A program made the position numbers and the translations under genes. Positions 1 to 16,340 of a DNA stretch of 64,000 bases are shown piece by piece. Positions within the stretch are counted from its first letter, which is position 1. Every line of letters starts with the position of its first letter. The notes below the pieces were generated by a model. It was not told the origin of the DNA. It searched no databases and saw nothing but the letters and a program-made list of their open reading frames with translations. Source of the DNA: Gemmatimonadota bacterium (GTDB lineage: Bacteria; Gemmatimonadota; Gemmatimonadetes; Longimicrobiales; Gaopeijiaceae); the NCBI GenBank assembly GCA_034521595.1, contig JAXHMG010000003.1, positions 1,088,001-1,152,000 of the forward strand, written 5' to 3'.

Positions 1-1
1 C

Positions 2-235
2 GGAGTGCTCGTGCCCCCTGGCGACGCGAGCGCGCTCGGGCGTGCTCTGCGGTCGGTCCTGGCCGAGGATGGCGAGATGCTGCGGCGACTGAAGGCGGGC
101 GCGATCCGGGCGGCGGGCACGCTCCCGGACTGGGCGCAAGCCGTGGTCGCGTTCGAAGGAGCGGTCGACACGCTCGCGAGGCTCGACCCGGGGTTCCGTC
201 GTGTCTCCGCCAACTCGGGGTCCAGGACCACGTGA
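2..235 (+). CDS. Glycosyltransferase family 4, C-terminal fragment (5' truncated by window)
   Basis: GVLVPPGDASALGRAL...LPDW matches the typical GT-B/GT4 C-terminus; GTGA overlap with next gene. Confidence 0.75.
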   Translation, partial: GVLVPPGDASALGRALRSVLAEDGEMLRRLKAGAIRAAGTLPDWAQAVVAFEGAVDTLARLDPGFRRVSANSGSRTT

Positions 236-1146: not shown

Positions 1147-2108
1147 CCGGATGGTTGCGGATGCTGGCGGGCCCTGTCTTGCTGGCGGCCCTGGGCTACC
1201 TGGTCGACCTCGAGGCCATCGTCGCCCGCCTACGGACGCTGGAGCCCGGATGGGTCGTCGCAGCCGTCGCCCTGGGAGTCGTGCAGACGGTGGTGTCGGC
1301 CTGGCGCTGGCGATACACGGGAGCTCGTCTGGGAATCGACCTTCCGTTCCGCACGGCGCTCACGGAATACTACCTGGCGATATTCCTCAATCAGGTGCTC
1401 CCCGGCGGTGTGCTCGGTGACGCGAATCGGGCGTGGCGGCATGCGGGACGATCTCGAAGCGGGAACAGCTCGGCCGGCCCCGCCGTCCGGTCCGTGATCC
1501 TGGAGCGAGCCGCCGGCCAGCTCGTCATCTTCCTGCTGGCGTTCCTGTCAGCCGGCATCGTGGCCGCGCGGGTGAATCGACTGGGCCTTTGGGTCGGCAC
1601 GATAGCCGTGGGGCTCGTGGCCTTCGCCGTGGGAGCTCGGATGCTCGAGTGGAGCAGGCGAGCCACGTCCCCCCTGGGGCAGCTCGCCCGTGACGCTCGC
1701 ACGGCCGTGTTCTCTCGTGAAGCGTGGGGGGTTCAGCTCGGCACCTCGGCCCTCATCGTCATCTCCTACGTGTTGACCTACGTCTGCGCCGCGTGGGCGG
1801 TGGGCATCGACACTCCGTTCGCCGTGCTGGCACCGCTGGTCCCTCCCGTCCTGCTGGCGATGCTTCTCCCCCTGTCGGTCGCGGGGTGGGGCGTGCGCGA
1901 GGCGGCCGCCGCGAGTCTGTGGGGCGTCGTGGGGCTGAGCGTGGCGGACGGTGTGGCCATCTCGGTGGTGTATGGCCTCCTCGTCCTCGTCGGGACGGCC
2001 CCGGGAGCCGCGGTGCTCGCGCTGGGCGGGCGTTACGCCGCGCCGCGCGAGCCCGACACGCGCCGGAGATCCAGGTCGAAGAGCACGTCGTCGCCGAGCG
2101 TGAAGTGA
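1143..2108 (+). CDS. Lysylphosphatidylglycerol synthase TM-domain (UPF0104) flippase-like membrane protein
   Basis: AWRWR, FLNQVLPGGVLGD, ILER and LPLSVAGWGVRE family motifs; multiple TM helices; ATG 1143 in ATGA overlap. Confidence 0.8.
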   Translation: MTGWLRMLAGPVLLAALGYLVDLEAIVARLRTLEPGWVVAAVALGVVQTVVSAWRWRYTGARLGIDLPFRTALTEYYLAIFLNQVLPGGVLGDANRAWRHAGRSRSGNSSAGPAVRSVILERAAGQLVIFLLAFLSAGIVAARVNRLGLWVGTIAVGLVAFAVGARMLEWSRRATSPLGQLARDARTAVFSREAWGVQLGTSALIVISYVLTYVCAAWAVGIDTPFAVLAPLVPPVLLAMLLPLSVAGWGVREAAAASLWGVVGLSVADGVAISVVYGLLVLVGTAPGAAVLALGGRYAAPREPDTRRRSRSKSTSSPSVK

Positions 2109-2908
2109 CGGCAGGCCGGACGGAGCGCGTCGGCCAGGGTGGCGACGGGCGCCAACGAGAGGCTCGGCCGACCCGACCCGATCACCATCGGGGCCACGGT
2201 CACGTGTAGCCGGTCGAGCGCTCGGGCGGCGAGGAAGTGGGAAACCGTGACGCCGCCCCCTTCCACTAGCACGCGCCGGCACCCGCGTGCCTCGAGCATC
2301 TCGAGGAGCCAGGAAGGAGCGATGACGCCCGGGTCCGGCTCTCGGGGAGCCATGATCTCGACGTGATCCGGCGTGGGACTTTCAGGCACGCCGTGTCGGA
2401 CCCACAGGGTCGGAGCCGCTCCGTCGCGGAACAGGTGTCCGCTCGGCTCGACGCGGCCGGCCGGGTCGAGCACGACGCGCAGTGGGTTCTCGCCGGGCGC
2501 CCGACGGGTCGTCAACCTCGGATCGTCGGACACGGCCGTGCCCGCGCCCACCACGACGGCATCCACGAGCGCTCGGAGGCGATGCAGCCTCTCGATATCC
2601 CCCGGCCCCGTGACATAGTGCGAATCCCCGGACTCGGTGGCGATCCGACCGTCGAGGCTCTGGCCGACCTGACCGACCACGATCCCCGGAGCCGCCGCGA
2701 TGGGGGCGAACAGGTCCAAGAGGTGGGTCGCCTCGGGGTCGGATGGCGCGGACGTCGTCCATGCTCCGGTGGGCTCCACCGTCAACGACGCGCCGTCGAC
2801 GGTCACTGTAGTGGCCTGACCGGAGCTTTCGGCGGAGACGGATGCGACCGCGTTCGCCGCGGCGCGCAAGAGGTCCCAAGCGCCCGTGGCGGTGATCCGC
2901 ACGCTCAT
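2033..2908 (-). CDS. RibD-family pyrimidine reductase (reductase domain only, no deaminase)
   Basis: QSLDGRIA, HRLRALVDAVVVGAGT, DDPRLTTR, LVEGGG, VAPMVIGSG; no HAE/PCxxC deaminase motifs. Confidence 0.85.
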   Translation of the reverse strand: MSVRITATGAWDLLRAAANAVASVSAESSGQATTVTVDGASLTVEPTGAWTTSAPSDPEATHLLDLFAPIAAAPGIVVGQVGQSLDGRIATESGDSHYVTGPGDIERLHRLRALVDAVVVGAGTAVSDDPRLTTRRAPGENPLRVVLDPAGRVEPSGHLFRDGAAPTLWVRHGVPESPTPDHVEIMAPREPDPGVIAPSWLLEMLEARGCRRVLVEGGGVTVSHFLAARALDRLHVTVAPMVIGSGRPSLSLAPVATLADALRPACRHFTLGDDVLFDLDLRRVSGSRGAA

Positions 2909-3723
2909 GGAGCGTCCTCCAAGCGATCCACCGGGAACGCCCAGGTTTCCCGGACGATCGTCGCGAGGACCGCGGCATAGTGCTCGACCAGCTCGGCACC
3001 GATCGCCTCCGTCGCCAGGCGGGCGTCACCCGTCACCCCGTGCGGGTTCAGGTCTCCCGCCAGCCACGAGAAGGGAGCCACGCCCTCCGGGCTCACCCAC
3101 CGCAAGGTGCTCGCCAACTCCTCTCCGAGCGTGGAGAACCGGGCGATGTGCTCGGCCCGGACGAGGTCGGGACGGAGGTGCAGGAGCATGGAGGTCTCGA
3201 CGGCCCCGCCGTGTAGCCCGTGCACCCATTCCTCGTCGGGAAGCTCCGTCGAGGTCGGACGGGGGAAGCGGAACGAATGGGCCTTCACCACCAGGAGGCC
3301 GTGCTCCGTCCGAAGGCGCAGACCCACGTCGTCGACGACGTGGGCGTTCCCGCCGTGCGTGTTGAAGAGAACCAGCCTGCGGAATCCCTGGCGGGCCAGT
3401 GCCGCTCCTTGCTGTAGGAGGATCTCCGCGAGCGTGTCCGCGGCGAGGGACAGGGTGCCGGCGAACCGGTCGTGCTCGAGGCTGGCGCCGCTCGAGAGCT
3501 CGGGCAGCAGCACGACCGGTACGTCGTCGGGAACGGCTTCGAGCGCTCGGCTGGCGAGTCCACGGGCGATGACGAGGTCGGTGGAGACCGGTAGGTGCGG
3601 CCCGTGCTGCTCGATCGCTCCAAGCGGGAGCACCGCGACCGGGTCCCGTGCCGCCAGAGCGGACAGCTCCGGGGCGCTCTGCTCTTCCCACCGCCACGTG
3701 GAGGGGGTCGGCTCGTCGGGCAT
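2905..3723 (-). CDS. Creatininase-family amidohydrolase (ArfB/FAPy deformylase-like)
   Basis: PLGAIEQHGPHLPVSTD, SLEH, NTHGGN, HGGAVETS, GVTGD motifs. Confidence 0.9.
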   Translation of the reverse strand: MPDEPTPSTWRWEEQSAPELSALAARDPVAVLPLGAIEQHGPHLPVSTDLVIARGLASRALEAVPDDVPVVLLPELSSGASLEHDRFAGTLSLAADTLAEILLQQGAALARQGFRRLVLFNTHGGNAHVVDDVGLRLRTEHGLLVVKAHSFRFPRPTSTELPDEEWVHGLHGGAVETSMLLHLRPDLVRAEHIARFSTLGEELASTLRWVSPEGVAPFSWLAGDLNPHGVTGDARLATEAIGAELVEHYAAVLATIVRETWAFPVDRLEDAP

Positions 3724-4496
3724 CAGCGCTCCTCTGAAGGGAAGGGGGCTTCGTGCGTCCCTGTATCGATTTTTGCGTAGACGTCTCCGAAGGCTAGGCC
3801 GTCCGCTCCGGCGTCGAGCCAGGCGCGCAGCTCCACCGCTCCCAGCCAGGGTCGAAAGCGGAACCGTCGCTCCTCACGGGCGACCGCGTTGAACCGGTAC
3901 GGTCCCAGCGCGTCCAGGTGATCCACACAGGCACGGGCGATGTCCAGCCCCCCCTGAACGAACTCGAAGGAAATCCCGGCGATCGGGTGGGTGAGTCCGG
4001 CCAACGCCTCCGCTTCGTGCCCTTCGATGTCCAGCTTGCAAAAGGTCGGAAGGCCGAAGCGGGCCACTAGGGCGTCGAGAGTGGTCAGGGGGACCGCCAC
4101 TTCGTCCTCCCACCGCACGCCGTCGAAACCCAGGTTGCGCTCCATCATCCTCCTCCGCCAGCCGGATGAGAGCGTGGAGACCGTCGGCGTGCGTCGGCTC
4201 ACGGCCAGCGAAGCGGTCCCCACCTCCGCACCTACCGCTTCTTCGAGCACGACGACTCCCTTCTTTCGGCCGGCGATGCGGCGGAGCCACCGTGCGACAC
4301 CGGGTTGCGGCTCGAGAGCGACCACCCGCGCGCCGAGGGAGGCGAAGGCCACCGTCCGATCCCCCAAGTGCGCGCCGACGTCGAAAACCAGGCTTCCGGG
4401 CTCCACGAACGGCGCGTAGAGGGAGCGCAGGCCCCGTTGGCGTCCGGGCCGCCAGTAGACCGCGAACGAGCGCAGCAGCCCGAGGAGCTCATCCAC
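3723..4496 (-). CDS. FkbM-family methyltransferase
   Basis: FDVGAHLG, VALEP, TTLDALV, KLDIEGHE motifs; start GTG 4496 estimated (overlaps upstream stop). Confidence 0.85.
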   Translation of the reverse strand: MDELLGLLRSFAVYWRPGRQRGLRSLYAPFVEPGSLVFDVGAHLGDRTVAFASLGARVVALEPQPGVARWLRRIAGRKKGVVVLEEAVGAEVGTASLAVSRRTPTVSTLSSGWRRRMMERNLGFDGVRWEDEVAVPLTTLDALVARFGLPTFCKLDIEGHEAEALAGLTHPIAGISFEFVQGGLDIARACVDHLDALGPYRFNAVAREERRFRFRPWLGAVELRAWLDAGADGLAFGDVYAKIDTGTHEAPFPSEER

Positions 4497-6195
4497 CGGT
4501 GCCCGCCGCACGGCTCGACCGCTCCTCGCTGAATGCCCGGATGAACCAGGTGCGGAACCGGTCCATCCCTTTCGGCTCTCCGTCCACATCCGGGAACGGT
4601 CCGGTCTCGAAGCCCCACTGCAGGAAAGGATCGAGAAGCTCTCGCGCACCGGTGATCACGTGGACGGGAACGGTTCTCGGCGCGTCCTCTCCGGTGATGA
4701 GCGGGGCGGGTTGATGGTCTCCGAGAAGGATCAGCAGCGCGTCCGAGCCGATGAAGCGCTCCGCGTAGCTGGCCGCCGTATGGACGGCATAGTCGATGGA
4801 CAACGCATAGTGCTCACGAACCCGTTCGGTGTCGCGCCAGAGCTCTTCAGGACGCTCTCCGGCCTCCCGCCACTCCTCGAACACGGACCCGTCACCGATC
4901 TCGTTCCAGGCCTCGAGAACCGGTAGGATGGGAGTCCACGGCGCGTGGCTGCTGATCAGACCGATCTCCGCGAAGAGCGGCCGTTCTTCAGGGGTCGCGC
5001 GGCGGACGGAGCGCTCGACGAAGGACCAAGTGTACTGATCCGGCATCGTCACCCAGTTCAGTGGCGGGCCTCGGTAGCCCATATCCTCGAAGGTGTAGAT
5101 GGCGTCGTATCCGAACTGGAACCCTTCGGGCCAGGCGAGGGTGATCGCGGGCATGACCGCGGCCGTCCTGTATCCGGCGGCTTCGAAGTCATCGATGAGG
5201 GTCGGGCGTGTGCTGGCCAGGAGGAGATCGTACCGCATCTGATTGTGGAGCCAGAGGCCGCTGAGCATCGAACCATGCCCCAACCAGGACTGTCCGCCCT
5301 GGCTCGGTGCGACCAGTCGTCCGGTCGCGAGGTGGAGGCCCGCGGCCTCGAGGCGCGATCCCATCTCCTTCAAACGGGGGCGGATCGTCGGAGCGTAGCG
5401 CGGATCTTCCAGCGCGGTCATGCCGTACGACTCGACGAACGCGAGAAGCACGTCCCGTCCCCCCAGCCGTCCGAGGAGTCCGGGCGTGCCGGAGAGATCG
5501 GCGGGACGTGCCGCGAGCTCGGCCGCGAACGCGTCGCGCTCTTCCAGGAGGCCTGCGGCGAAGCGTGCCTGCTCGGCGGCGAGACGGGCCCCCGGGAAGC
5601 CGAGAGCCCGGCTCCACCCCTCGTCCGCCCGCATGCCGACGAGGATGCCGGACGCCACGAGGACCGTGAGGCCCATGCTCCGGTAGGACCTCAGGACGGG
5701 ACGCACCCGGCGCGGGGGCGCCAGAAGGTGTCCGAGGAGGGCCACGACCGCCAATGGCAGGAGGATCGCGGCCGTGCGAACGACCGTGGCCATCGCCGGG
5801 CCCATGGTGCCCGTCAGTAGGTCGGACACGGCGCTGAGCAGGCGGATATCCAAGTAGATGTTGAGCGGGCGCGAAAGGCTCATGCGGGCGGACGCATCTC
5901 CGAGTCCGACCAATCCCATGGCCACGACGATCAAAGCCGCGAGGAGCGCCAGGGCCACGGACCACGGCCGCCGCGGCAGGGCCGCGAAGACGAGCGTGAG
6001 AACGACGGCTTCCCCGGCCACCCAGTGGAAGGGGACCATCCCCGGAGCGGCCCATTGGGGCGCCAGGAGGATCCCATTGACAAGGACGAAGGCCAGGATG
6101 AGGCTCAACCACCTTCCGGGGGCCGTTGAGGGCCACGACGCGAGCGCCTTTGCGACCGAGCGCATCCCGGTGTCGGTTGCCGGATCGGATGTCAT
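4489..6195 (-). CDS. Membrane-anchored sulfatase/alkaline-phosphatase-superfamily protein (OpgB/LtaS/EptA-like architecture)
   Basis: About 5 N-terminal TM helices, then FVESYG, GGQSWLGH (candidate Ser nucleophile), SSHAPW and GDHQP metal-binding motifs. Confidence 0.75.
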   Translation of the reverse strand: MTSDPATDTGMRSVAKALASWPSTAPGRWLSLILAFVLVNGILLAPQWAAPGMVPFHWVAGEAVVLTLVFAALPRRPWSVALALLAALIVVAMGLVGLGDASARMSLSRPLNIYLDIRLLSAVSDLLTGTMGPAMATVVRTAAILLPLAVVALLGHLLAPPRRVRPVLRSYRSMGLTVLVASGILVGMRADEGWSRALGFPGARLAAEQARFAAGLLEERDAFAAELAARPADLSGTPGLLGRLGGRDVLLAFVESYGMTALEDPRYAPTIRPRLKEMGSRLEAAGLHLATGRLVAPSQGGQSWLGHGSMLSGLWLHNQMRYDLLLASTRPTLIDDFEAAGYRTAAVMPAITLAWPEGFQFGYDAIYTFEDMGYRGPPLNWVTMPDQYTWSFVERSVRRATPEERPLFAEIGLISSHAPWTPILPVLEAWNEIGDGSVFEEWREAGERPEELWRDTERVREHYALSIDYAVHTAASYAERFIGSDALLILLGDHQPAPLITGEDAPRTVPVHVITGARELLDPFLQWGFETGPFPDVDGEPKGMDRFRTWFIRAFSEERSSRAAGTGG

Positions 6196-6231
6196 GTTCG
6201 GATGTGCCGGTCCACGGAGCTGAAGGGAATC

Positions 6232-7869
6232 ATGTCATTTCGCCTGCTTGCCGCTTTCCTCGCGCTCGTGCTGCTCGTCTGGTGGTTCACGACCGGTCCC
6301 ACTCTACCGTCACTGGTACCCGGAACCAACCCGGGCGAGCACACGCCCCCACCGGACACCGCGAGCCCGGCCGAGACGGTCTGGCAACCGCGCCCCGAAA
6401 CGTTGACCGAGGATCTGGCGCGCCACGCCCGTGCCCTCTCCGAAAGGGCGTACGTGGCACCGTCCTGGAACGTTCCGGACAGGCTCGCGGAGTTGGACTT
6501 CGACGGGTACCGCTCCATCCGCTTCCGGCCCGCCGCTTCCGTCTGGCGTGACGAAGGCATGTTCGAAGTTCAACTCTTCCACCTCGGCGGTGCCTACGAC
6601 ACACCCGTGTCCATCCACTTCGTCGAAGGTGACTCCATACGGGAGCAACGCTACGATCCCGCGCTCTTCTCGTTCGAGGGAGCCGCGTCGGAGGTCGGTG
6701 ACCTGCCGAGCGGCTCGGTCCCGGCGTTCGCCGGGTTCCGCGTTCACTACCCGCTCAACGCGCCCGAACGGAGCGACGAGGTCGCGGCGTTCCTCGGCGC
6801 CTCGTACTTCCGGATCCTCGGCGCGGGACACCAATACGGGCTCTCCGCGCGCGGCCTGGCCATCGATCCCGCCACGGACGGGCCCGAGGAGTTCCCGGAT
6901 TTCAAGGCGTTCTGGATCACGCGGCCCGAGGACGGATCCCGAACCTTGACGGTCCACGCTCTCCTCGACGGGCCGTCGGTCGTGGGGGCCTATCGGTTCG
7001 AGCTTCGGCCCGGTGCCTCGACGGAGCTCATGGTCGACGCTCACCTGTTCGGGAGGCGCGACGTCTCCAAGCTCGGCGTGGCTCCCTTGAGTAGCATGTT
7101 CCTGCACGCGCCCGGGCACGGTCCCCGGCACGACGACTTCCGCCCCCGTGTGCACGATTCCGACGGCCTGCAGATGCTCACGGGCCGCGGGGAGTGGATC
7201 TGGAGGCCACTTTCGAACGGGCCCGGTTTCCACGTGACGTCCCTCCGGGACGAAGATCCGTCGGGGTTCGGCCTGTTCCAGCGCGCGCGGGACTTCGAGG
7301 ACTACTTGGATCTGGAAGCCCGGTACGACCGCCGTCCGAGCTACTGGGTGGAAGTGATCGATGGGGACTGGGGCACCGGAGGGGTGGAGCTCATGGAGAT
7401 CCCCACGCCCTCCGAGTTCAACGACAACATCGCTGCCTACTGGGTGCCGGACCGACCGCTCGCCGCGGGCGAGGAGCGTAGGTACGCGTATCGGTTGAGC
7501 ACCCATGACGCTCGTCCGCCGGAGCTCGATCTCGCGCACGTGGAGCGCACGGCGGTGGGACGGGACGCCCTGCCGGGGGAAGGCGAGCCTTCCCCTCCGG
7601 GCCACCGGCGTTTCGTGGTGGATTTCGTGGGCGGTGTCCTCACGGACCTCGGGGAGGAGGACGATGTACGACCGGATCTCTCGCTGCTCAGGGGGAGCGC
7701 GGAGGGGGTCACGGTACAGCCCTTGCCGGGTAACACGGGGCGGCGGGTGACCTTCACCTTGATCCCCGACGGCGACGAGCCGGCGGACATGCGTCTGCGT
7801 CTGCTCCTCGATGACCGCTCGGTGAGCGAGACTTGGAGCTATGTTTGGTATCCTCGAGACATGAACTGA
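6232..7869 (+). CDS. opgG: Periplasmic glucan biosynthesis protein OpgG/OpgD (MdoG family)
   Basis: YRSIRFRP, FAGFRVHYPLN, FLGASYFR, YGLSARGLAID, EEFPDF, RPRVHDSDGL, NDNIAAYW, SETWSY; N-terminal hydrophobic signal/anchor. G versus D paralog not resolved. Confidence 0.92.
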   Translation: MSFRLLAAFLALVLLVWWFTTGPTLPSLVPGTNPGEHTPPPDTASPAETVWQPRPETLTEDLARHARALSERAYVAPSWNVPDRLAELDFDGYRSIRFRPAASVWRDEGMFEVQLFHLGGAYDTPVSIHFVEGDSIREQRYDPALFSFEGAASEVGDLPSGSVPAFAGFRVHYPLNAPERSDEVAAFLGASYFRILGAGHQYGLSARGLAIDPATDGPEEFPDFKAFWITRPEDGSRTLTVHALLDGPSVVGAYRFELRPGASTELMVDAHLFGRRDVSKLGVAPLSSMFLHAPGHGPRHDDFRPRVHDSDGLQMLTGRGEWIWRPLSNGPGFHVTSLRDEDPSGFGLFQRARDFEDYLDLEARYDRRPSYWVEVIDGDWGTGGVELMEIPTPSEFNDNIAAYWVPDRPLAAGEERRYAYRLSTHDARPPELDLAHVERTAVGRDALPGEGEPSPPGHRRFVVDFVGGVLTDLGEEDDVRPDLSLLRGSAEGVTVQPLPGNTGRRVTFTLIPDGDEPADMRLRLLLDDRSVSETWSYVWYPRDMN

Positions 7870-7871
7870 GC

Positions 7872-10808
7872 TTGAGCGCACCCTCCCAGACCACACCACC
7901 TCCAGTCTCGAGCGCATCGATCTTCGATGCGCCGGGCCTCGGGCTCCGTCGCACCCTCTTCGCCTTTCTCGTCGCCGGAACGACCGTCTACGGCGTATCC
8001 ATGATGGCGAGCATCGTGGGCGCGGGCGGAACCACGCTGCTCGAGGTGGCGATCCTGGTCCTTTTCGCGCCGACGTTCGGCTGGATCTCCATTGCCTTCT
8101 GGAACGCGATCCTGGGGTTCGTCCTCCAGGCGTGGAATCGGGACCCGCTTACGCTACGGCCGATGGGATCGCGGGCGCGTACCCTCGCCGATGTGCCGAT
8201 CACCACGCGCACCGCGCTGGTCGTTCCCAGCCGGAACGAGGACGTGAGCGCCGTGGTCGAGCGGATCCGCTGGATGTTGGATTCGCTGGAGGAAACGGGC
8301 ATGGCGGGTGTGTTCGACGTGCACCTTTTGAGCGATGCCGACGACCCCGGATTGATCGACGTCGAGGAGCGGGAGTGGAGCGAGCTCCGGGAAGAGTACG
8401 GTGGCTCATCCGGCCTTCACTATCGACGTCGCTCGTCGAACCAAGGGCGCAAGGCGGGCAACATCGCCGAGTTCTGCGAGCGATGCGGGGACGACTACGC
8501 GTATTTCGTGGTCTTGGACGCGGACTCCGTGATGCGGGGGGATACGCTCGTCCACCTCGTCCGGGGCATGGAAGCGGATCCGAGCGTGGGCCTCCTCCAG
8601 ACGGTCCCGCTTCCTCGGCGCCAGGAAACCCGCTTCGGCCGATTCGTGGAGTTCGCGTCGACCCTCTACGGCCCGATGCTGGCCACCGGACAGAGCTTCT
8701 GGCAGGGGGACGCAGCGAATTACTGGGGGCACAACGCGATCGTGCGCATGGATCCGTTTCGGCGGCACGGTCGTCTGCCCGTCCTTCCCGGGTCGCCCCC
8801 GCTCGGTGGTGAGATCCTCTCCCACGACTTCGTGGAAGCCGCGCTCCTGCGTCGTGCCGGCTGGAGCGCGTACCTCCTCCCGGACGTGAAGGGAAGCTGG
8901 GAGGACGTGCCGAGCAACCTGCTCGACTTCGCGCGCCGTGACCGCCGTTGGGCTCAGGGGAGCCTCCAACACCTCAGGCTGATGGGCCTCGCGGGCCTCC
9001 ATCCCCTCAGCCGCCTCCACTTCTTGCTGGGGGCCATGGGTTACGTGTCCTCGTTGCTCTGGCTCCTCCTTCTCCTCGCCAGCACGATCTACGTGGCGGA
9101 GTGGCAGGGAATCGGGGGCATCGTGGTCCTCGATAGCCCCACGCCGGGTCCGGGGGCGGCGGGCCGACCGGTCCCCTCGCTTCTCGGGATTACCGCAGGA
9201 CTCTTGTTCATTCCGAAGATGTTGGGAGTCGGTCTCGCCTTCCGGGACCGGATCCCGTTCGCCAACAGAGGAAGGTTGGCCGTTCGTGCCTCGTCGGAAG
9301 CCGCGTTCGCCGTCCTGGTGGCGCCGATCATGATGCTCGTCCACGCTTGGTGTGTCACCAGCATCGTGGCTGGGCGGTCCGTGGCCTGGGGGAGCCAGCT
9401 GCGGGACGGTCGGATCGTTTCCTGGTCCGAAGCGACCCGGCGGGTCGGCTGGGTGACCGCGGTGGGGGTGGCCTGGGGCGCCTACACGCTTTTCCTGAGC
9501 CCGTTGTTCTTCGCCTGGCTTTCCCCGATCTTCGCCGGGTTGCTGGTCGCCGTGCCGACGGTACGATGGACCTCGGACCCTCGGCACGGCGTTGTTGCTT
9601 CCGGTCGTGACGACGGCCGGCGCTCACGATCCGGTCCGCCCGGAGCCGCCGATGGGCAGGAAGGTGCCGTGAACAATATGCACGAAGCCGAGCGGAGTCT
9701 CTTCGAGCTGAGGCGGCACAGAGCGGTTTACGTCGAGAGCGCGCAGGGTCCCGACGGCACCGCGGGCGTCGATCTCCTCGTCGCGTCGGCGGAAGGGATC
9801 GACGATGGAGTTCTGGCGATGCTTCGCGAATATAGTGCGGGCCCGCTTCACCTTCTCATCACGCCGTACCGCGCTCGCGCGATGGGGATCGAGGCAGGAT
9901 CCGCTCCGTTGGCACTCGAGCTACCCCAGCGCATGGGGCCGTCCGAAATCCTCCGCCTGAGCAGCACACCGCGGCCGATGCCGTCGGTCAAGCTCGCCTC
10001 ACGCCCGCTGACCGACGCCGAGGAGGTCAGCCTCTCCTTGGCACGGTTGGGGCACCTGCTACCTGCCGTGGTGAGCGCCACCGTGCCACCCGACGTACCC
10101 ACCGGTCTCGGGCAGCGGCTGGCCTCCGGGCAGGTATTGCGAGCGCACGCGAGTCGCATACGAGCGGCCTTCGCCACGCCGCGGCTCTCGGTCACGCGAG
10201 TGAGCGCGGCGGCGGTGCCCCTGCAAGACACCGAAGACGCGGAATTCATCCTGTTTCGGGAGGAACACGGCTTCCTGGAGCACGTCGCCATCCTGATCGG
10301 CTCCCGGGAGCGATGGCCGGATCCTCTTCCGGTGCGGCTCCATTCCGCGTGCCTCACGGGCGATCTCTTCGGAAGCTTGAAATGCGACTGCGGTGAGCAG
10401 CTCCACGGAAGCCTACGCCATTTTCGGGAGCGAGGCGGGGGTGTGTTGCTGTACCTGCAACAGGAGGGCCGGGGCATCGGGCTGGGGAACAAGCTCCGGG
10501 CGTACGCTCTCCAGGAAGGTGGGCTCGATACCGTGGACGCGGATTGCGCCCTCGGATTCGGGCCGGACGAGCGGAGCTACGACGCGGCCGTCGATATGCT
10601 GAGGCACCTCGGGATCGAGCGTGTCCAACTGCTCACGAACAACCCGGAAAAGCTGAGAGCACTCGAGAGCGCGGGAGTGAAGGTGCTCGACCGAATGCCC
10701 CTCCACGGAACGTTGAATCGCCACAATCTCCCCTACGTGAAAGCGAAAGTGCAACGTGCGGGCCACTGGCTCGGCGACATGTTGTCGGAGGCTTCCGAGC
10801 GACCGTGA
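7872..10808 (+). CDS. opgH-ribA: Fusion of OpgH (MdoH) glucan glucosyltransferase with a degenerate RibB-like domain and GTP cyclohydrolase II (RibA)
   Basis: OpgH motifs RKAGNIAEF, VLDADS, NYWGHNAIVR, ILSHDFVEAALLRRAGW, RDRRWAQG; in frame with no stop, RibA motifs VRLHSACLTGDLFGSLKCDCGEQL, QEGRGIGLGNKLRAY, DERSY, LLTNNPEK, GHWL; TTG 7872 start estimated. Confidence 0.9.
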   Translation: MSAPSQTTPPPVSSASIFDAPGLGLRRTLFAFLVAGTTVYGVSMMASIVGAGGTTLLEVAILVLFAPTFGWISIAFWNAILGFVLQAWNRDPLTLRPMGSRARTLADVPITTRTALVVPSRNEDVSAVVERIRWMLDSLEETGMAGVFDVHLLSDADDPGLIDVEEREWSELREEYGGSSGLHYRRRSSNQGRKAGNIAEFCERCGDDYAYFVVLDADSVMRGDTLVHLVRGMEADPSVGLLQTVPLPRRQETRFGRFVEFASTLYGPMLATGQSFWQGDAANYWGHNAIVRMDPFRRHGRLPVLPGSPPLGGEILSHDFVEAALLRRAGWSAYLLPDVKGSWEDVPSNLLDFARRDRRWAQGSLQHLRLMGLAGLHPLSRLHFLLGAMGYVSSLLWLLLLLASTIYVAEWQGIGGIVVLDSPTPGPGAAGRPVPSLLGITAGLLFIPKMLGVGLAFRDRIPFANRGRLAVRASSEAAFAVLVAPIMMLVHAWCVTSIVAGRSVAWGSQLRDGRIVSWSEATRRVGWVTAVGVAWGAYTLFLSPLFFAWLSPIFAGLLVAVPTVRWTSDPRHGVVASGRDDGRRSRSGPPGAADGQEGAVNNMHEAERSLFELRRHRAVYVESAQGPDGTAGVDLLVASAEGIDDGVLAMLREYSAGPLHLLITPYRARAMGIEAGSAPLALELPQRMGPSEILRLSSTPRPMPSVKLASRPLTDAEEVSLSLARLGHLLPAVVSATVPPDVPTGLGQRLASGQVLRAHASRIRAAFATPRLSVTRVSAAAVPLQDTEDAEFILFREEHGFLEHVAILIGSRERWPDPLPVRLHSACLTGDLFGSLKCDCGEQLHGSLRHFRERGGGVLLYLQQEGRGIGLGNKLRAYALQEGGLDTVDADCALGFGPDERSYDAAVDMLRHLGIERVQLLTNNPEKLRALESAGVKVLDRMPLHGTLNRHNLPYVKAKVQRAGHWLGDMLSEASERP

Positions 10809-11380
10809 AGGGGTCGTCGGATTACAGGGGACATCCCTGCGGCGCTTGTCGGAGCGTCGGGACGGGACGCGCGGCGATCCTCCTCGCGCTGTTGGGGACG
10901 GTCGCGTGCGAGCCGGTGCCCGAGGTGGCCCGAGATCCCGATCCGCTCCTCCAAACGTCGGAGCTCCGATACCGGATCGAGCGGCACGACATCGGCTACT
11001 CCACGCAGGTCGTCTACACGTTCCGGAACGACACGGGCGCGGACGTCCATCTCGAGAATTGCGACGGTGACATACGTCCGTTGCTCCAGGTGCGACGCGA
11101 GGGCCGCTGGGTTGATGCTTGGCGCCCGCTGATGCGGGAGTGCGCGAGTGAGCCCGTGGTGATCGAGAGGGGAGCCCGCCTCACCGACACGCTCGAGGTC
11201 GTGGGGGCCCCGCCCGAATCGAACGTCTCTCCGAGCTTCGTGTTCGAGGACGTTGAAGGTGTCTATCGATTGTATTGGTTCCAATCCCGGCTCGTCCCCG
11301 AGGGTGAAAGCGGGGGCGACGCCTCCGATCCCGGGATCCCGTGGCGGACGTCGAACCCGTTCGCCCTCGCGTTTCCCTGA
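10805..11380 (+). CDS. Hypothetical lipoprotein (beta-rich)
   Basis: GTGA overlap with upstream stop; hydrophobic stretch ending in lipobox-like TVAC; beta-strand pattern with two Cys. Confidence 0.6.
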   Translation: MKGSSDYRGHPCGACRSVGTGRAAILLALLGTVACEPVPEVARDPDPLLQTSELRYRIERHDIGYSTQVVYTFRNDTGADVHLENCDGDIRPLLQVRREGRWVDAWRPLMRECASEPVVIERGARLTDTLEVVGAPPESNVSPSFVFEDVEGVYRLYWFQSRLVPEGESGGDASDPGIPWRTSNPFALAFP

Positions 11381-11403
11381 CCGCCCGTGCTGGAGGATGC
11401 TCG

Positions 11404-11619
11404 ATGCCACCCAGCCGCTATGTTTCCGCGGATCGTCTCCTGCGCATGCTGGCGTACATCGCCGTGGCCGTGGTCGTGTTGGTGGCGGCCGATGCGGTGT
11501 TCCGTGTCTTCGGGTCGCCCCAGGCGGTGCGTCGCACCTTCGCGGTGATCTGGATCGTGGCCCTCCCGTTGGGAGGATGGTGGCTCTGGCGGCGCACGGC
11601 CCGCGATTCCGGCCATTGA
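11404..11619 (+). CDS. Small two-TM membrane protein
   Basis: GGAGG SD at 11392-11396, ATG 11404, two hydrophobic helices. Confidence 0.6.
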   Translation: MPPSRYVSADRLLRMLAYIAVAVVVLVAADAVFRVFGSPQAVRRTFAVIWIVALPLGGWWLWRRTARDSGH

Positions 11620-11673
11620 CCCTTCGGCCCGGTGGGGCCAGCTTCTCCAAAGCGAGTCGGCACCCGACGCGAG

Positions 11674-11709
11674 GCGCGGCCCCGATGGATTCCGGGCGCC
11701 GCGTTTTTT
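11674..11709 (+). terminator. Intrinsic terminator-like hairpin upstream of thrS
   Basis: GCGCGGCCCCG...CGGGCGCCGCG stem followed by T6. Confidence 0.55.
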
Positions 11710-11745
11710 GATGTCAGTCGGTGGAACTCTCAGGACCCACGAGCC

Positions 11746-13671
11746 ATGTCGAGCGAACACATCCGCATCACCCTTCCGAACGGCGATGTTCTCGAGCTTC
11801 CGGAAGGATCCACGGCCGGGGATGTCGCGGCTGCTATCGGACCGGGGCTGGCCCGCGCCGCGCTCGCCGCGGTCGTGAACGGTCGCACGGTCGGCCTCAT
11901 GGAACCCATCGAAGGTGACGCCGAAGTAAGGATCCTGACGGAGAAGGATCCCGAGGCCCTTCCGGTGTTGCGCCATTCCGCCGCGCACGTGCTCGCCACG
12001 GCGGTGCGCGAGCTGCGTCCGGGCGCCGGCATCGGATTCGGTCCGGCCATCGACGAGGGATTCTACTACGATTTCGACGTGCCCGAGCCCTTCACTCCCG
12101 AAGACCTCGAGATCTTCGAGCAGAAGATGGAGGAGGTCACCGAGGCCGACCAGCCGTTCGAGCGCAAGCACGTTACCAAGGAAGAAGCGCGCGAGCTGTT
12201 CTCGGACGACCCTCTCAAGCTCGAACGGCTCGAGGAGTTCGACGACGACGAGGTCATCACCGTCTACGAGAACGGTCCCTTCATGGACCTGTGCAAGGGA
12301 CCCCACGTGCCGAGCACCGGCCGCCTCGAGCACTTCAAGCTGCTCTCGGGCGCGGGCGCCTATTGGCGTGGGGACGAGCGCCGCCAGATGCTGCAACGCA
12401 TTTACGGTACGGCCTTCCCGAAGCAGCAGGACCTCGACGAGTACATCGAACGGCGGGAAGAGGCGCGAAAGCGTGACCATCGACGGGTCGGAAAGGACCT
12501 GGATCTGTTCCTCTTCCATCCCTGGGCGCCGGGCGCGCCCTTCTGGACGGATCGCGGGACGACGGTGTTCCAGGTGTTGAGCGAGTGGATGTCGGGTGTT
12601 TTGCGCGAGAATGGCTATCAGCAGGTCAAGACCCCGCTCCTGTACAACAAATCGCTCTGGGAGCAGTCCGGTCACTGGGGGAAGTACCGCGAGAACATGT
12701 TCATGGTTCTGGATAAGGAATCCGGGGAGCACGACCTCTCCCTCAAGCCCATGAACTGTCCCTCCCACTACCTCCTCTACCAGGCGCGTCGGCGGTCTTA
12801 CCGAGAGTTGCCGGTCCGGTTCGCCACCCAGGACGTGCTCCACCGAAACGAGGTCACGGGCGCGCTCAGCGGTCTCACGCGCGTGCGCCAGTTCCAACAG
12901 GACGACGCCCACATCTTCCTCACGGAAGACCAGATCGTGGACGAGGTCCGCCGTCTCGTCGAGCTCATCGACTACTTCTACCGTACGCTCGGCCTCGAGT
13001 ACAGGACGAAGTTCGCCACCCGACCGGAAGAGCGCATCGGAGACGATGCCATGTGGGATCGTTCGGAGCGCGCGCTTCGGGATGCCCTCGACGCGCTCGG
13101 CCGCCCCTACGACTTGAAGGAGGGAGACGGCGCGTTCTACGGCCCGAAGATCGACTTCGACGTCGTGGACGCGATCGGACGCGAATGGCAGCTGGGTACC
13201 ATTCAGCTGGATTACGCAAACCCGGATCGCTTCGACCTCACGTACGTGGGTGAGGACAACACCGAGCACCGACCGGTCATCATCCACCGCGCGATTTTCG
13301 GCTCGTTCGAACGGTTCATCGCGATCCTCATCGAACACTACGCGGGAGCGTTCCCGACGTGGCTCAGCCCCGAGCAGGTTCGGGTGCTGCCGATCTCGGA
13401 GCAGTGGGTCGACAGCGCACGGGACCTCGTCACCCAACTCGAGCACGCCGGCGTGCGAGCCCGGATGGCCCCGAGAGATACGCTCAACTACCGGATTCGG
13501 GAGGCGGAGAAGCTGAAGATCCCCTACATGGCGGTCGTGGGTGAACGCGAAGCCGCGAATGACACGGTGGCGGTCCGGCGTCGGGGAGCGGGGAAGAAAC
13601 AAGACATTATCGCGCGGGCGGACTTCGTGGAGCGAGTGACCGAGGAGGTCCGGTCGAGGGCGCTCGAGTGA
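11746..13671 (+). CDS. thrS: Threonine--tRNA ligase
   Basis: TGS domain, RHSAAH, DLCKGPH, RDHRRVG, KPMNCP, GAFYGPKIDF, IHRAIFGSFERF. Confidence 0.98.
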   Translation: MSSEHIRITLPNGDVLELPEGSTAGDVAAAIGPGLARAALAAVVNGRTVGLMEPIEGDAEVRILTEKDPEALPVLRHSAAHVLATAVRELRPGAGIGFGPAIDEGFYYDFDVPEPFTPEDLEIFEQKMEEVTEADQPFERKHVTKEEARELFSDDPLKLERLEEFDDDEVITVYENGPFMDLCKGPHVPSTGRLEHFKLLSGAGAYWRGDERRQMLQRIYGTAFPKQQDLDEYIERREEARKRDHRRVGKDLDLFLFHPWAPGAPFWTDRGTTVFQVLSEWMSGVLRENGYQQVKTPLLYNKSLWEQSGHWGKYRENMFMVLDKESGEHDLSLKPMNCPSHYLLYQARRRSYRELPVRFATQDVLHRNEVTGALSGLTRVRQFQQDDAHIFLTEDQIVDEVRRLVELIDYFYRTLGLEYRTKFATRPEERIGDDAMWDRSERALRDALDALGRPYDLKEGDGAFYGPKIDFDVVDAIGREWQLGTIQLDYANPDRFDLTYVGEDNTEHRPVIIHRAIFGSFERFIAILIEHYAGAFPTWLSPEQVRVLPISEQWVDSARDLVTQLEHAGVRARMAPRDTLNYRIREAEKLKIPYMAVVGEREAANDTVAVRRRGAGKKQDIIARADFVERVTEEVRSRALE

Positions 13672-13759
13672 CCGAGGGCGGTCCCCGGAGCTCCCGGAGA
13701 ACGACGGAGCGTGCCGTTGACCGGGATGAGCGCATCGCCCATCTTCTCCGAGGAGAAAA

Positions 13760-13902
13760 TCAGCAAGCAGGTCGGCTCGGCCGCCGTCCTCACCCTCGGG
13801 CTCCACGGAGCCGACTCGGGGGTCGCGCTTTCATCGGGTGTGCCTCAGGGCGGACCCGGAACGGCTAGTGCGACCCGGGTTCCGAGAGCTCGGGTCTTTT
13901 TT
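13760..13902 (+). promoter_or_regulatory. Candidate L20-leader-like attenuator with intrinsic terminator upstream of infC-rpmI-rplT
   Basis: AAGCAG...CTCACC element with AAGC/GCTT closing pair, then hairpin GACCCGGGTTC-CGA-GAGCTCGGGTC plus T6 (13872-13902). Confidence 0.45.
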
Positions 13903-13965
13903 GTCGTTCGTGATCAGGTGTCATGGTGACGCCCGACACAGGACACCATCGGAGGGTTAGGGGAA

Positions 13966-14484
13966 ATCAACGACAAGCGAGTCCGCGTGAACGAGCAGAT
14001 CCGGATCAGCCCGGTCCGGTTGATTCAGGACGATGGTGAGCAGATCGGCATCGTCTCCCTCGACGAGGCGCGTGAGCGCGCTACCAAACGGGGAATGGAT
14101 CTGGTCGAAGTAGCGGCAGATGCCCGTCCGCCCGTGGTCAAGATGATGGACTACGGCAAGTACAAGTACGAAGCCCAGCGGGCTGCCAAGGAAGCGCGGA
14201 AAAAACAGCATACGATCCAGGTCAAGGAAGTGAAATTCCGACCGGGCATCGAGGACCACGACTACGAGTTCAAGCTCCGACACGCGCGTCGTTTCCTCGA
14301 AGAGGGAAACAAGGTCAAGCTGACCATGATGTTCCGGGGACGTCAGGTCACACACCCCGAGCTGGGCGTGGAGATCTTGTCCCAGGTGATGGAAGACCTG
14401 AAGGACGTGGGCAAGGTCGAGTCCCAGCCGAATATGGAAGGGCGGGTGATGTCCATGGTCGCCGCTCCCCTCGACACCAAGTAG
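13966..14484 (+). CDS. infC: Translation initiation factor IF-3 (non-canonical ATC start)
   Basis: RVNEQIR, DLVEVA, MDYGKYKYE, KEVKFRP, FRGR; in-frame ATC at 13966 after GGAGG. Confidence 0.97.
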   Translation: MNDKRVRVNEQIRISPVRLIQDDGEQIGIVSLDEARERATKRGMDLVEVAADARPPVVKMMDYGKYKYEAQRAAKEARKKQHTIQVKEVKFRPGIEDHDYEFKLRHARRFLEEGNKVKLTMMFRGRQVTHPELGVEILSQVMEDLKDVGKVESQPNMEGRVMSMVAAPLDTK

Positions 14485-14532
14485 AGAACCGGGTCCTGCG
14501 GGCTCGGCCCAAAGGAACAACGGAGAGACTGA

Positions 14533-14733
14533 ATGCCGAAGATGAAGACGCACCGAGGTGCGGCCAAGCGCGTCAAGAAGACGGGCACGGGTAAGCTCAA
14601 GCGCATGCGCGCGAACAAGAGCCATATCCTGACCAAGAAGACGCGGAAGCGGAAGCGCCGCCTTCGGCGGTCCGATCTGGTGGCCTCCTCCGACGCGAAG
14701 AAGCTGAAGCGAATCCTACCCTACGGCGCCTGA
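14533..14733 (+). CDS. rpmI: 50S ribosomal protein L35
   Basis: [13 protein letters not shown]...HILTKK; synteny. Confidence 0.98.
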
Positions 14734-14745
14734 GGAGGAGTCCCC

Positions 14746-15114
14746 ATGCCGAGAGCGACCTCCGCCGTAGCGCGGAACAGAAAGAAGAAGAAGATCTTCA
14801 AGGCTGCGAAGGGTTACTTCGGCGGCCGTAAGAATCTCTATCGGACGGCGAAAGACGCCGTCGAGCGCGGTTGGCAACACGCCTATCGGGATCGCAAGAA
14901 GAAGAAGCGGACGTTCCGGAGGCTCTGGATCGCGCGCATCAACGCGGCCGCGCGGGAGCACGACCTCTCCTATTCGCGCTTCATAAACGGCCTGAAGCAC
15001 GCCGGAATCGAGTTGGACCGGAAGGCGCTCGCGGATGTCGCGGTGCGTAATCCCGAAGCGTTCGAAACGCTGGTCGTTCGCGCGAAGGAAGGGCTCGACC
15101 AGAAGGCCGGATAA
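14746..15114 (+). CDS. rplT: 50S ribosomal protein L20
   Basis: MPRA...KGYFGGR...YRDRK...LWIARINAA...LDRKALA. Confidence 0.98.
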
Positions 15115-15150
15115 GCCGGACGTTCCGATCCGAGGGTCCACACCTGGTAG

Positions 15151-15185
15151 GGGCCTCGCGGCATCGAGCCGCGGGGCCCTTCCTG
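15151..15185 (+). terminator. Strong hairpin after rplT (possible terminator or processing stem)
   Basis: GGGCCTCGCGGC-ATCGA-GCCGCGGGGCCC followed by only a weak T tract (TTCCT). Confidence 0.35.
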
Positions 15186-15314
15186 CATCCGGGGGCAGGG
15201 GAACCCGTTCCCGGCGGGTGGGATGAGCGGCGCGAGTCGCTCGGATTGCATCCCGTCGTGCGCTTGATAGCTTACGGACCGCCCCGGAAGGGCCTACCCC
15301 CGTCACTTGCGGAG

Positions 15315-16340
15315 ATGATGAATCAGCCTGACCTGACCAACGCTTTGCGCACCCTCGAGCGGGAGGCTCTGGAGCGGATCGCGAGCGCGAACGACGCGGA
15401 AGCACTCGAGGCAGTTCGTGTGGACTATCTCGGCCGCAAGGAAGGACGCGTATCCCAGATCCTGAGGGGTCTGGGTAGCATGCCTCCGGAGGAGCGGCCG
15501 GCGGTTGGCCAGGAAGCCAATCGGGTGAAGGACGAGCTCGCGCGGGCGCTCGATCGACGAGAAGCCGAGGTGAGCGGGGTCGAGGACCATACGTACGGGG
15601 ACCGGAGCCTTCCGGCCCGCGACCCGTGGCGTGGCGGGCTCCACCCCATCACGCAGGCGGTGGACGAGATCTGGGAGATCTTCCGGGGGCTCGGCTTCAG
15701 TCGAGCCCGCGGGCCCGAGGCGGACACCGAGTGGTACAACTTCGAGGCGCTGAACACCCCGCTCGACCATCCGGCCGCCGACGAGCAGGACACGCTGTAC
15801 CTCGCGGACTCCGTCCTCCTGCGCAGCCATACCTCGCCCGTGCAGATGCGCACGATGGAGCGGCACGACCCGCCCGTCCGCGTATTGGCTCCCGGCTGGG
15901 TCTATCGGCGCGATACCTACGACGCCACACACACTCCCGCGTTCATGCAGATCGAGGGGCTCGTGATCGACGAGGGGGTCACCTTCGTGGATTTCAAGGC
16001 GACGCTGGCCGAGTTCGCGCGACGCTACTGGGGCTCGGACACACGCGTTCGTTTCCGCCCGTCTTTCTTTCCATTCACCGAGCCCAGCGCCGAGGTGGAC
16101 GTCAAACGCTTCGTCACCCGACCGGACGGAACGAGGGAAGAGACGGACTGGTTGGAGATCATGGGCGCGGGAATGGTCGATCCGGCCGTTATCGAGAACG
16201 CGGGGCACGACCCGGAGCGCTACACCGGCTGGGCGTTCGGGATGGGACCGGGACGCATCGCGATGCTCAAGCACGGCGTGAGCGATCTTCGAACCTTCTT
16301 CGAGAACGACGTCCGCTTCCTTTCCCAGTTCGCCTCATGA
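15315..16340 (+). CDS. pheS: Phenylalanine--tRNA ligase alpha subunit
   Basis: LRSHTSPVQ, YRRD, HTPAFMQIEG, FPFTEPSAE, AFGMG; start 15315 or 15318. Confidence 0.97.
   Translation: MMNQPDLTNALRTLEREALERIASANDAEALEAVRVDYLGRKEGRVSQILRGLGSMPPEERPAVGQEANRVKDELARALDRREAEVSGVEDHTYGDRSLPARDPWRGGLHPITQAVDEIWEIFRGLGFSRARGPEADTEWYNFEALNTPLDHPAADEQDTLYLADSVLLRSHTSPVQMRTMERHDPPVRVLAPGWVYRRDTYDATHTPAFMQIEGLVIDEGVTFVDFKATLAEFARRYWGSDTRVRFRPSFFPFTEPSAEVDVKRFVTRPDGTREETDWLEIMGAGMVDPAVIENAGHDPERYTGWAFGMGPGRIAMLKHGVSDLRTFFENDVRFLSQFAS

Follow-up and report, generated by a model that had tools for sequence, protein, structure and literature searches.

Two enzymes that are textbook subjects when taken singly, the periplasmic glucan synthase OpgH (MdoH) and RibA, or GTP cyclohydrolase II (GCHII), are the closest described relatives of the protein considered here; their union, and the gene cluster in which it lies, were not found in the literature searched. 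The osmoregulated periplasmic glucans (OPG) are decorated by OpgB with phosphoglycerol from phospholipid. Three domains of Escherichia coli OpgH are cytoplasmic, the C-terminal one among them, according to PMC3723540, and PMC9478397 describes a bacterial creatininase-family enzyme, BrbF, that deformylates the GTP cyclohydrolase intermediate 2-amino-5-formylamino-6-ribosylamino-4(3H)-pyrimidinone 5'-phosphate (AFRPP). We describe a gene from a Gemmatimonadota bacterium in which OpgH and a long form of RibA are encoded by one reading frame. It lies on the forward strand of a stretch of 64,000 nucleotides (positions 1,088,001 to 1,152,000 of contig JAXHMG010000003.1, assembly GCA_034521595.1), the whole of which is called the window below. 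The public annotation label for such fused proteins is just "MdoH" (Gemmatimonadota or Longimicrobiales), a label that hides the second enzyme.

From 7833 to 10808 (+) the window holds a single frame of 991 codons with no internal stop, as had been noticed from the letters of the DNA, and both Pfam and NCBIfam support each of its ends. The public gene call starts at a TTG at 7872 and gives 978 aa; the stop codon of opgG precedes it by 2 nt. The linker, taken beforehand for a Gly/Arg/Pro stretch of about 35 aa, measures 33 codons. The domains follow one another in this order:

7872 to 9578, forward strand: OpgH/MdoH part of the fused frame, comprising a glycosyltransferase family 2 (GT2) domain and transmembrane (TM) segments, with an alternative TTG start at 7833 (NF003958)
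9579 to 9677, forward strand: linker of 33 codons, residues 583-615, poorly conserved (alignment of fused proteins and loci)
9678 to 10202, forward strand: degenerate domain resembling 3,4-dihydroxy-2-butanone 4-phosphate synthase (DHBPS, or RibB), from Met616, at which the free-standing gene starts in relatives
10206 to 10808, forward strand: GTP cyclohydrolase II domain and stop codon (PF00925, 177.7 bits; 2bz0, 4.1e-45)

The N-terminal half scores above the cut-off of the MdoH equivalog NF003958 from NCBIfam (668.8 bits against 419, with residues 35-588 covering profile positions 16-576 of 704) and of a second MdoH model, NF003962 (535.2 bits against 328). Pfam places GT2 families at residues 130-420. 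Within these lie the motifs DAD (229-231) and RDRRW (369-373), which we take to be the catalytic DxD and Q/RxxRW motifs of GT2 enzymes, and which are the same in every one of 97 fused proteins. (The alignment of 97, used throughout, holds fused proteins of at least 900 aa: P0001 and 96 of the 100 proteins P0004-P0103, four shorter ones being excluded.) The equivalog score, the GT2 motifs and an opgG gene directly 5' (6202-7869) together identify the half as OpgH, and UDP-glucose-dependent beta-1,2-glucan synthesis is its predicted activity. Hydropathy gives four hydrophobic segments after the GT domain, although hydropathy alone does not fix the number of TM segments. The original prediction supposed that the usual C-terminal tail of OpgH had been replaced by the linker, and this part of it fails: OpgH of unfused relatives likewise reaches just 33-84 aa past the last TM segment, with a small motif of the RRRGLFLVPSE type that is still present before the linker in several fused proteins. 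Because the unfused proteins are equally short, the short tail is, on this comparison, a trait of the lineage and not a product of the fusion.

The remaining two domains make up what we call the long RibA. Its RibA domain matches E. coli RibA (2bz0) at 4.1e-45, and the AlphaFold2 (AF2) model agrees with that structure at TMt 0.90 and rmsd 2.0. The zinc cysteines and the NKLRAY tyrosine that the first reading had pointed out are in place, C840, C851, C853 and Y891 aligning with C54, C65, C67 and Y105 of 2bz0. Tyr105, Asp126, Arg128 and the GTP-binding positions of E. coli RibA are preserved, and 16 of 17 listed positions are kept in the window protein, the list being of those residues that we take, after UniProt and the literature on 2bz0, to form the active site. 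Sixteen of the 17 corresponding columns are identical in all 97 fused proteins, and the Gln70 column in 96 of the 97. PF00925 covers residues 792-956 (1.8e-52; 177.7 bits against 23.3), the subfamily model NF001591 is exceeded (218.9 bits against 148), and TIGR00505 falls slightly below its cut-off (190.9 against 205.85). With the PF00925 and NF001591 scores, the zinc triad, the catalytic Tyr and Arg and the GTP-binding residues all present, the GTP cyclohydrolase II domain looks catalytically complete. Its predicted activity is the conversion of GTP to 2,5-diamino-6-ribosylamino-4(3H)-pyrimidinone 5'-phosphate (DARoPP), formate and pyrophosphate.

The domain in front of it had been called a degenerate RibB, a description that the closer comparison upholds. 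PF00926 (DHBP synthase) has no match in the fused protein, and the RibBA equivalogs score far below their cut-offs (NF006803, 202 against 569; NF006805, 210 against 486). Aligned by hhalign to a true RibBA, region 616-790 gives a probability of 71%, an E of 3.7e-5 and 178 collinear columns, and in that alignment the acidic loop and the RPGHIFPL (His) motif of DHBPS are absent from it. The AF2 model of the whole module (pLDDT 88.8, pTM 0.85) has its best fold match in Mycobacterium tuberculosis RibA2 (4i14), over 376 columns, with RibB structures at TMt 0.54-0.64. Judged from alignment and model, the domain has kept its fold, has lost its catalytic motifs and is an inactive scaffold. The only PF00926 match in the genome lies within a riboflavin operon about 335 kb off (C3:1430355-1433714), which holds ribD (288 bits, above cut-off), a PF00926 DHBPS joined to GCHII, and 6,7-dimethyl-8-ribityllumazine (DMRL)/lumazine synthase. 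Because a normal ribD-ribBA-ribH operon is thus present elsewhere, the long RibA is an accessory copy and not the housekeeping enzyme of riboflavin synthesis.

The architecture is widespread. In a search with residues 600-991, restricted to long proteins, 100 of the 120 matches listed combine GT2 families with PF00925, at identities down to 48% and from NCBI, ENA, JGI and Logan; the domain-architecture search suggested by the original prediction thus finds a fusion that is not unique to one assembly. The fused proteins in that listing are of 916-1067 aa, plus two shorter ones (651 and 772 aa). Among 40 relatives there are full-length stop-free matches in five genomes (G002-G005, at 63-65% identity, and G013), and a sixth (G017) has both parts in one frame; a search with the DHBPS-like domain gave 129 species-genome loci, and 11 of the best 80 carry the fused gene. 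The linker varies from 33 to 76 codons and is in frame in all 14 unique fused loci. Because the same in-frame architecture recurs in many proteins from several sources, the fusion is real and not an assembly artefact. Its most conserved stretch across the 97 proteins is the RibA domain, with 0.69-0.87 identity to the window protein per 30-residue block, and the linker is among the least conserved; both halves are, on this pattern, under selection.

Met616 (9678-9680) aligns with the initiator methionine of free-standing long-RibA genes. All 14 unique fused loci have ATG at this place, and about 97% of the 97 aligned proteins have Met there, despite the drifting linker, and at one free-standing gene (locus L017) the start reads TGA ATG, a stop directly before the start. 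Because the fusion begins exactly at the start of the free-standing gene, it is, to judge from these alignments, the outcome of the loss of a stop between neighbouring opgH and long-ribA genes, through which the OpgH tail and a formerly intergenic stretch came to be read into the RibA start Met. Adjacent but unfused pairs of the two genes are found as well (G001, G370, G400 and L070). On a tree of 86 unique modules (from a quick IQ-TREE search, with several long branches flagged) the fused state takes four changes, at least two of which are forced by well-supported branches. In the same tree, rooted at its midpoint, the modules of Vicinamibacterales (Acidobacteriota) form one group nested in those of Gemmatimonadota, a nesting that hints at transfer of the cluster between the phyla. 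Internal initiation at Met616, giving additional free RibA, is possible. The best match to a Shine-Dalgarno-like AGGAGG averages 4.00 where the genes are fused, 3.91 where OpgH is present but unfused and 3.46 where OpgH is absent, and free-standing genes are also without a clear motif.

The two genes keep company even where they are not fused. In a sample of 401 Gemmatimonadota genomes, evenly chosen over the phylum, the long RibA occurs in 18 and OpgH in 13, and all 13 of the OpgH genomes carry the long RibA with OpgH no more than 8 kb from it (six fused, two adjacent, five with opgGH elsewhere in the cluster). No OpgH was found outside the cluster in these 401 genomes. The prospect, raised beforehand, that opgH and ribA might prove unlinked in relatives is therefore not borne out, the pair being fused, adjacent or within 8 kb. 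In each of the 16 loci whose contig extends upstream of opgG, the divergent gene beside opgG is that of a membrane protein, called S below. Wherever OPG synthesis occurs in this phylum it thus sits inside the cluster, which for its part can do without OPG.

The cluster to the left of the fused gene was read as follows (L120 coordinates are those of the locus, part of which lies to the left of the window):

L120:10814-14232: upstream cluster genes, a CDP-alcohol phosphatidyltransferase (reverse strand), then a zinc alcohol dehydrogenase-like (Zn-ADH-like) protein, a 6-pyruvoyltetrahydropterin synthase (PTPS)-family protein and a glycosyltransferase family 4 (GT4) protein (forward strand)
1 to 232, forward strand: 3' end of the GT4 glycosyltransferase gene, which starts outside the window (L120:13030-14232; Pfam Glycos_transf_1, 6.5e-30)
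232 to 1146, forward strand: class I S-adenosylmethionine (SAM) methyltransferase (a weak Methyltransf_25 match, 5.6e-05, below cut-off)
909 to 2108, forward strand: LPG_synthase_TM (flippase-like) membrane protein, its true start probably near 1158 (PF03706, 4.6e-40; tblastn to the Vicinamibacterales orthologue)
2033 to 2908, reverse strand: RibD_C-type pyrimidine reductase, DARoPP-reductase-like (PF01872, 5.4e-38)
2905 to 3723, reverse strand: creatininase-family amidohydrolase (PF02633, 1.8e-64; creatinine amidohydrolase 1q3k in the PDB, 6.6e-16)
3723 to 4649, reverse strand: FkbM-family methyltransferase (PF05050, 2.4e-11; TIGR01444, 80.3 bits against a cut-off of 37.7)
4489 to 6195, reverse strand: S, a polytopic membrane protein of 568 aa with a probable alkaline phosphatase (AlkP)-superfamily domain resembling LtaS, EptA and OpgB, divergent from opgG (Atlas look-alikes and fold)
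6202 to 7869, forward strand: opgG/opgD, a periplasmic glucan protein of the MdoG family (PF04349, 3.2e-172)

The extent of the cluster was drawn by sorting the open reading frames of 72 loci, each 12 kb or longer, into similarity clusters and annotating representative members. This adds the CDP-alcohol phosphatidyltransferase, Zn-ADH-like, PTPS-family, GT4, class I methyltransferase and LPG_synthase_TM genes, in 47-63 of the 72 loci and in both phyla; all of them are also in the genome of the window, partly to the left of it. The GT4 gene is kept beside the cluster in 60-63 of the 72 loci, and the class I methyltransferase belongs to an orthologue group conserved in Gemmatimonadota and Vicinamibacterales. 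The genes for RibD_C, creatininase, FkbM and S keep to the neighbourhood of the long RibA both in Vicinamibacterales and, whether opgGH is present or not, in Gemmatimonadota. The cluster, of about 13 genes, is one that by its predicted functions pairs GTP ring-opening chemistry with phospholipid-headgroup and glycan transferases. With D for RibD_C, C for the creatininase-family gene, M for FkbM, A for the long RibA, G for opgG, H for opgH and "<>" for a switch of strand, its core is found in these orders:

D-C-M-S <> G-H~A (fused)
D-C-M-S <> G-H, A (adjacent)
D <> A, C-M-S <> G-H
H-G <> S, A <> M-C-D
A, M-S <> G-H
D-C-M-S <> A, without opgGH

Three of its members deserve closer description. 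The best PDB sequence match of the RibD_C protein is 6p8c, a 2,5-diamino-6-ribosylamino-4(3H)-pyrimidinone 5'-phosphate reductase (1.6e-29), and the NCBIfam riboflavin models all score it under their cut-offs. The creatininase-family protein is likewise under the cut-offs of the MftE, creatininase, IolN and ArfB models (ArfB, 19.4 bits). S gives a Pfam Sulfatase match below cut-off (E 0.0022) and no match in the PDB by single sequence or by profile; its look-alikes in the Atlas are sulfatase-like transferases, some of them fused to CDP-alcohol phosphatidyltransferase. The AF2 model of S (pLDDT 73.1) best matches LtaP/LtaS, EptC, MCR-1/EptA, PbgA and GacH, at E of 4e-9 to 3e-5 and with TMt only 0.42-0.51. 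Four of its residues, E255, S303 and D493-H494, do not vary among 11 sequences drawn from two phyla, and are presumably the equivalents of the LtaS ligands. The long RibA too has other fusion partners among the matches listed (P0107-P0118): CDP-alcohol phosphatidyltransferase (five clusters), RibD_C, GTP cyclohydrolase I, and, in one case, a ClC channel with CBS domains.

Some further observations concern the surroundings. One genome without OpgH (G009) carries two D-C-M-S <> RibA modules on separate contigs (L017 on C15, L018 on C5), and three Ectothiorhodospiraceae loci have a long RibA without the remaining cluster genes. The gene directly upstream of the cluster (L120:9529-10896) encodes Lnb_N and 5TMH_Lnb domains. 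The 820 nt that separate the fused gene from thrS (10809-11631) are without a clear gene, and relatives, e.g. L013, have a gap of about this length too. A promoter and terminator scan of 10700-11700 gave no sites, and an Rfam scan of window positions 1-16000 no families.

We favour, with somewhat more belief than doubt, the reading that the fused protein is the membrane-tethered first enzyme of a GTP-derived envelope pathway. An OpgH-type GT2 synthase would carry the long RibA on its cytoplasmic C-terminus as a two-enzyme protein of the inner membrane; the cytoplasmic site is suggested by the C-terminus of E. coli OpgH, by the four hydrophobic segments after the GT domain and by the need for GTP. 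The fusion would keep the GTP-consuming first step at the membrane and in fixed ratio to the glucan synthase. The long RibA may open GTP to DARoPP, or to a formyl intermediate for the creatininase-family enzyme to finish, as BrbF does; RibD_C would reduce the ribosyl group, and later steps would yield a compound handled at the membrane. Enzymes that could process the GCHII product are at hand in RibD_C, the creatininase-family protein, PTPS, the Zn-ADH-like protein and the methyltransferases, and a candidate lipid-headgroup and glycan machinery in the CDP-alcohol phosphatidyltransferase, GT4 and the flippase-like TM protein. A membrane-linked pathway finds support in the fusion of the long RibA to CDP-alcohol phosphatidyltransferase, to RibD_C and to GTP cyclohydrolase I, and of look-alikes of S to CDP-alcohol phosphatidyltransferase. 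For the decoration of the periplasmic glucan itself, the putative LtaS-like transferase S would be the best candidate. Because the cluster of the RibA module exists without OpgH, beside product-using enzymes, any link to the periplasmic glucans would run through the cluster, and most consistently through S. The original prediction saw a Rosetta-stone fusion here, and so far as a real, conserved and useful link goes, that idea stands; channelling or GTP-level regulation, the two uses it proposed, are not what the cluster context shows. A fuller scheme, offered tentatively and with only a small chance of being right, is that the cluster makes a GTP-derived envelope decoration. A polyol or heterocycle alcohol, made by RibA, RibD_C, creatininase, PTPS, the ADH-like protein and the methyltransferases, would be put on a lipid by the CDP-alcohol phosphatidyltransferase, perhaps glycosylated by GT4, flipped, and passed by S to OPG or another acceptor. 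The fusion would then couple supply of the substituent to that of the backbone, and a second, free RibA may be made from Met616.

Several observations weigh against so functional an account, and most of them would be expected if the fusion were a neutral accident of the operon, opgGH having come to lie beside the cluster once and stayed linked by descent, and the loss of a stop having joined two independent enzymes with no coupling between them. In ten of the genomes tested the cluster is present and OpgH is not: no MdoH match was found in the other five cluster-bearing Gemmatimonadota genomes (0/5, 91-100% complete) or in five Vicinamibacterales chromosomes with the cluster (0/5), and OPG therefore cannot be the obligatory target. 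The 13 genomes with OpgH are close kin, of 8 genera and mostly one family, so that common descent might account for a good part of the linkage. The two genes are now joined, now separate in closely related genomes (G001, of the same genus, is unfused), so the fusion is not required. The linkers, besides varying in length, show weak codon bias, with a pooled G+C content at third codon positions (GC3) of 0.69 against about 0.80 in the domains (14 unique fused loci). Nor are the enzymes quite standard. The E. coli Glu53, beside the first zinc Cys, is Ala (residue 839, 10347-10349) in all 97 fused proteins, as it is in all 34 modules of a further alignment, and housekeeping RibBA retains Glu; the long-RibA equivalog NF006456 (PRK08815) gives 312.8 bits against a cut-off of 464 (residues 618-980 over profile positions 19-365 of 376); and the proteins of the cluster are all below NCBIfam equivalog cut-offs. 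Against mere accident, opgGH remains in the cluster through at least four gene orders with S always adjoining, OpgH is found nowhere else in the 401-genome sample, fused clades persist to about 48-50% identity, and the long RibA elsewhere is fused to other membrane proteins. We hold the neutral account unlikely, while granting it an appreciable chance. The further objection that mis-assembly or a frameshift joined two genes, or that the gene is a pseudogene, draws on the junction itself, which was checked with assembled Logan contigs and not raw reads. A 459-nt contig of depth 3.86, belonging to a second run of what may be the source sample, has a single-base deletion at 9523; a contig of depth 9.45, from which the assembly may itself derive, spans 9300-10100 with no differences. 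The deletion is treated as a low-depth error, and with the same architecture in 100 of the 120 matches listed, and in frame at 14 of 14 unique fused loci, an artefact is effectively refuted.

Two other functions for the RibA half would keep the protein working while changing its meaning. It might belong to an accessory early-riboflavin branch (GCHII, formamidase/deaminase and reductase) that raises the supply of flavins, e.g. secreted or envelope flavins, with the envelope genes neighbours by synteny only. In its favour, the GCHII active site looks complete, DARoPP reductase is what the RibD_C gene resembles most, and PMC9478397 has a creatininase-family formamidase acting in bacterial riboflavin synthesis and a second RibBA of Sinorhizobium meliloti serving flavin secretion. 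Against it, the genome already has a complete-looking rib operon, and the cluster is without RibB activity, lumazine synthase or riboflavin synthase. What is conserved alongside is a set of lipid and glycan enzymes, PTPS and methyltransferases, the creatininase homologue reaches just 19.4 bits on the ArfB model, and such a branch seems to us improbable. Or the RibA-like module might sense or consume GTP as a regulatory domain that tunes OpgH, an idea that fits its tethering at the cytoplasmic end of OpgH, the ligand-binding that a catalytically dead DHBPS-like domain could offer, and the moonlighting of E. coli OpgH as a metabolite-dependent regulator (PMC3723540). Genomes without OpgH, though, conserve the same module as a separate gene, its complete catalytic set is invariant, and enzymes that could use its product are encoded alongside, which leaves GTP sensing very improbable. 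We thus return to a membrane-tethered first enzyme of a GTP-derived envelope pathway as the reading we prefer.

In the literature searched, no paper was found with both "OpgH" and "GTP cyclohydrolase II", nor one linking PTPS with CDP-alcohol phosphatidyltransferase, and searches on OPG in Gemmatimonadetes and on the enzyme set of the cluster found nothing relevant to the fusion or the cluster. The cluster is common to two poorly studied, largely uncultured phyla of soil and saline habitats, and has a real chance of being something new; the fusion is a handle on it. If its product is an envelope substituent or lipid headgroup, it would represent a new biosynthetic use of GCHII and a novel type of modification of OPG or of the envelope. 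Should the cluster be no more than an accessory flavin branch, it would still illustrate the recruitment of riboflavin-pathway paralogues and their tethering to membranes.

Several known systems resemble parts of this locus without matching the whole. S appears to share with the LtaS, EptA and OpgB-type transferases, its best fold matches, an N-terminal helical membrane domain and an AlkP-fold domain; it differs from them in having no PDB sequence match even by profile and a Pfam Sulfatase score below cut-off. In Streptomyces, RibA paralogues reportedly turn to an output like that of GTP cyclohydrolase (GCH) III through a change of Tyr to Met. The early riboflavin steps of archaeal ArfA/ArfB/ArfC and of bacterial BrbF involve the three functions that are encoded together in the cluster, namely the opening of the GTP ring, hydrolysis by a creatininase-family enzyme and DARoPP reduction (PMC9478397), whereas the opener here is a GCHII with Tyr retained and not a GCH III, the match to the ArfB model is weak and the neighbours are lipid and glycan genes. 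RibBA, as seen in M. tuberculosis RibA2 (4i14), has the same order of domains, a DHBPS fold and then GCHII, and is the best fold match, whereas the DHBPS domain of the window protein has lost the acidic loop, the His motif and any PF00926 match, and scores far below the RibBA equivalogs. RibBX of Acinetobacter baumannii (6mnz), among the fold matches at E 2.6e-13, is a two-domain relative of RibBA with one half degenerate, and is presumably a mirror image of the present case in which the GCHII-like half is altered. The long RibA of NF006456 matches over the whole module (618-980); because the window protein stays below that cut-off, it is placed in a subfamily separate from PRK08815, and it has Ala at the Glu53 position. 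With E. coli OpgH the likeness extends to the MdoH equivalog, the DxD and RxxRW motifs, the polytopic form and a place directly after opgG. The E. coli protein also has a long N-terminal FtsZ-binding domain and a C-terminal cytoplasmic domain of about 130 aa (PMC3723540). The OpgH of the window is without both, profile positions 577-704 are unmatched, and a RibA module of 376 aa is present instead.

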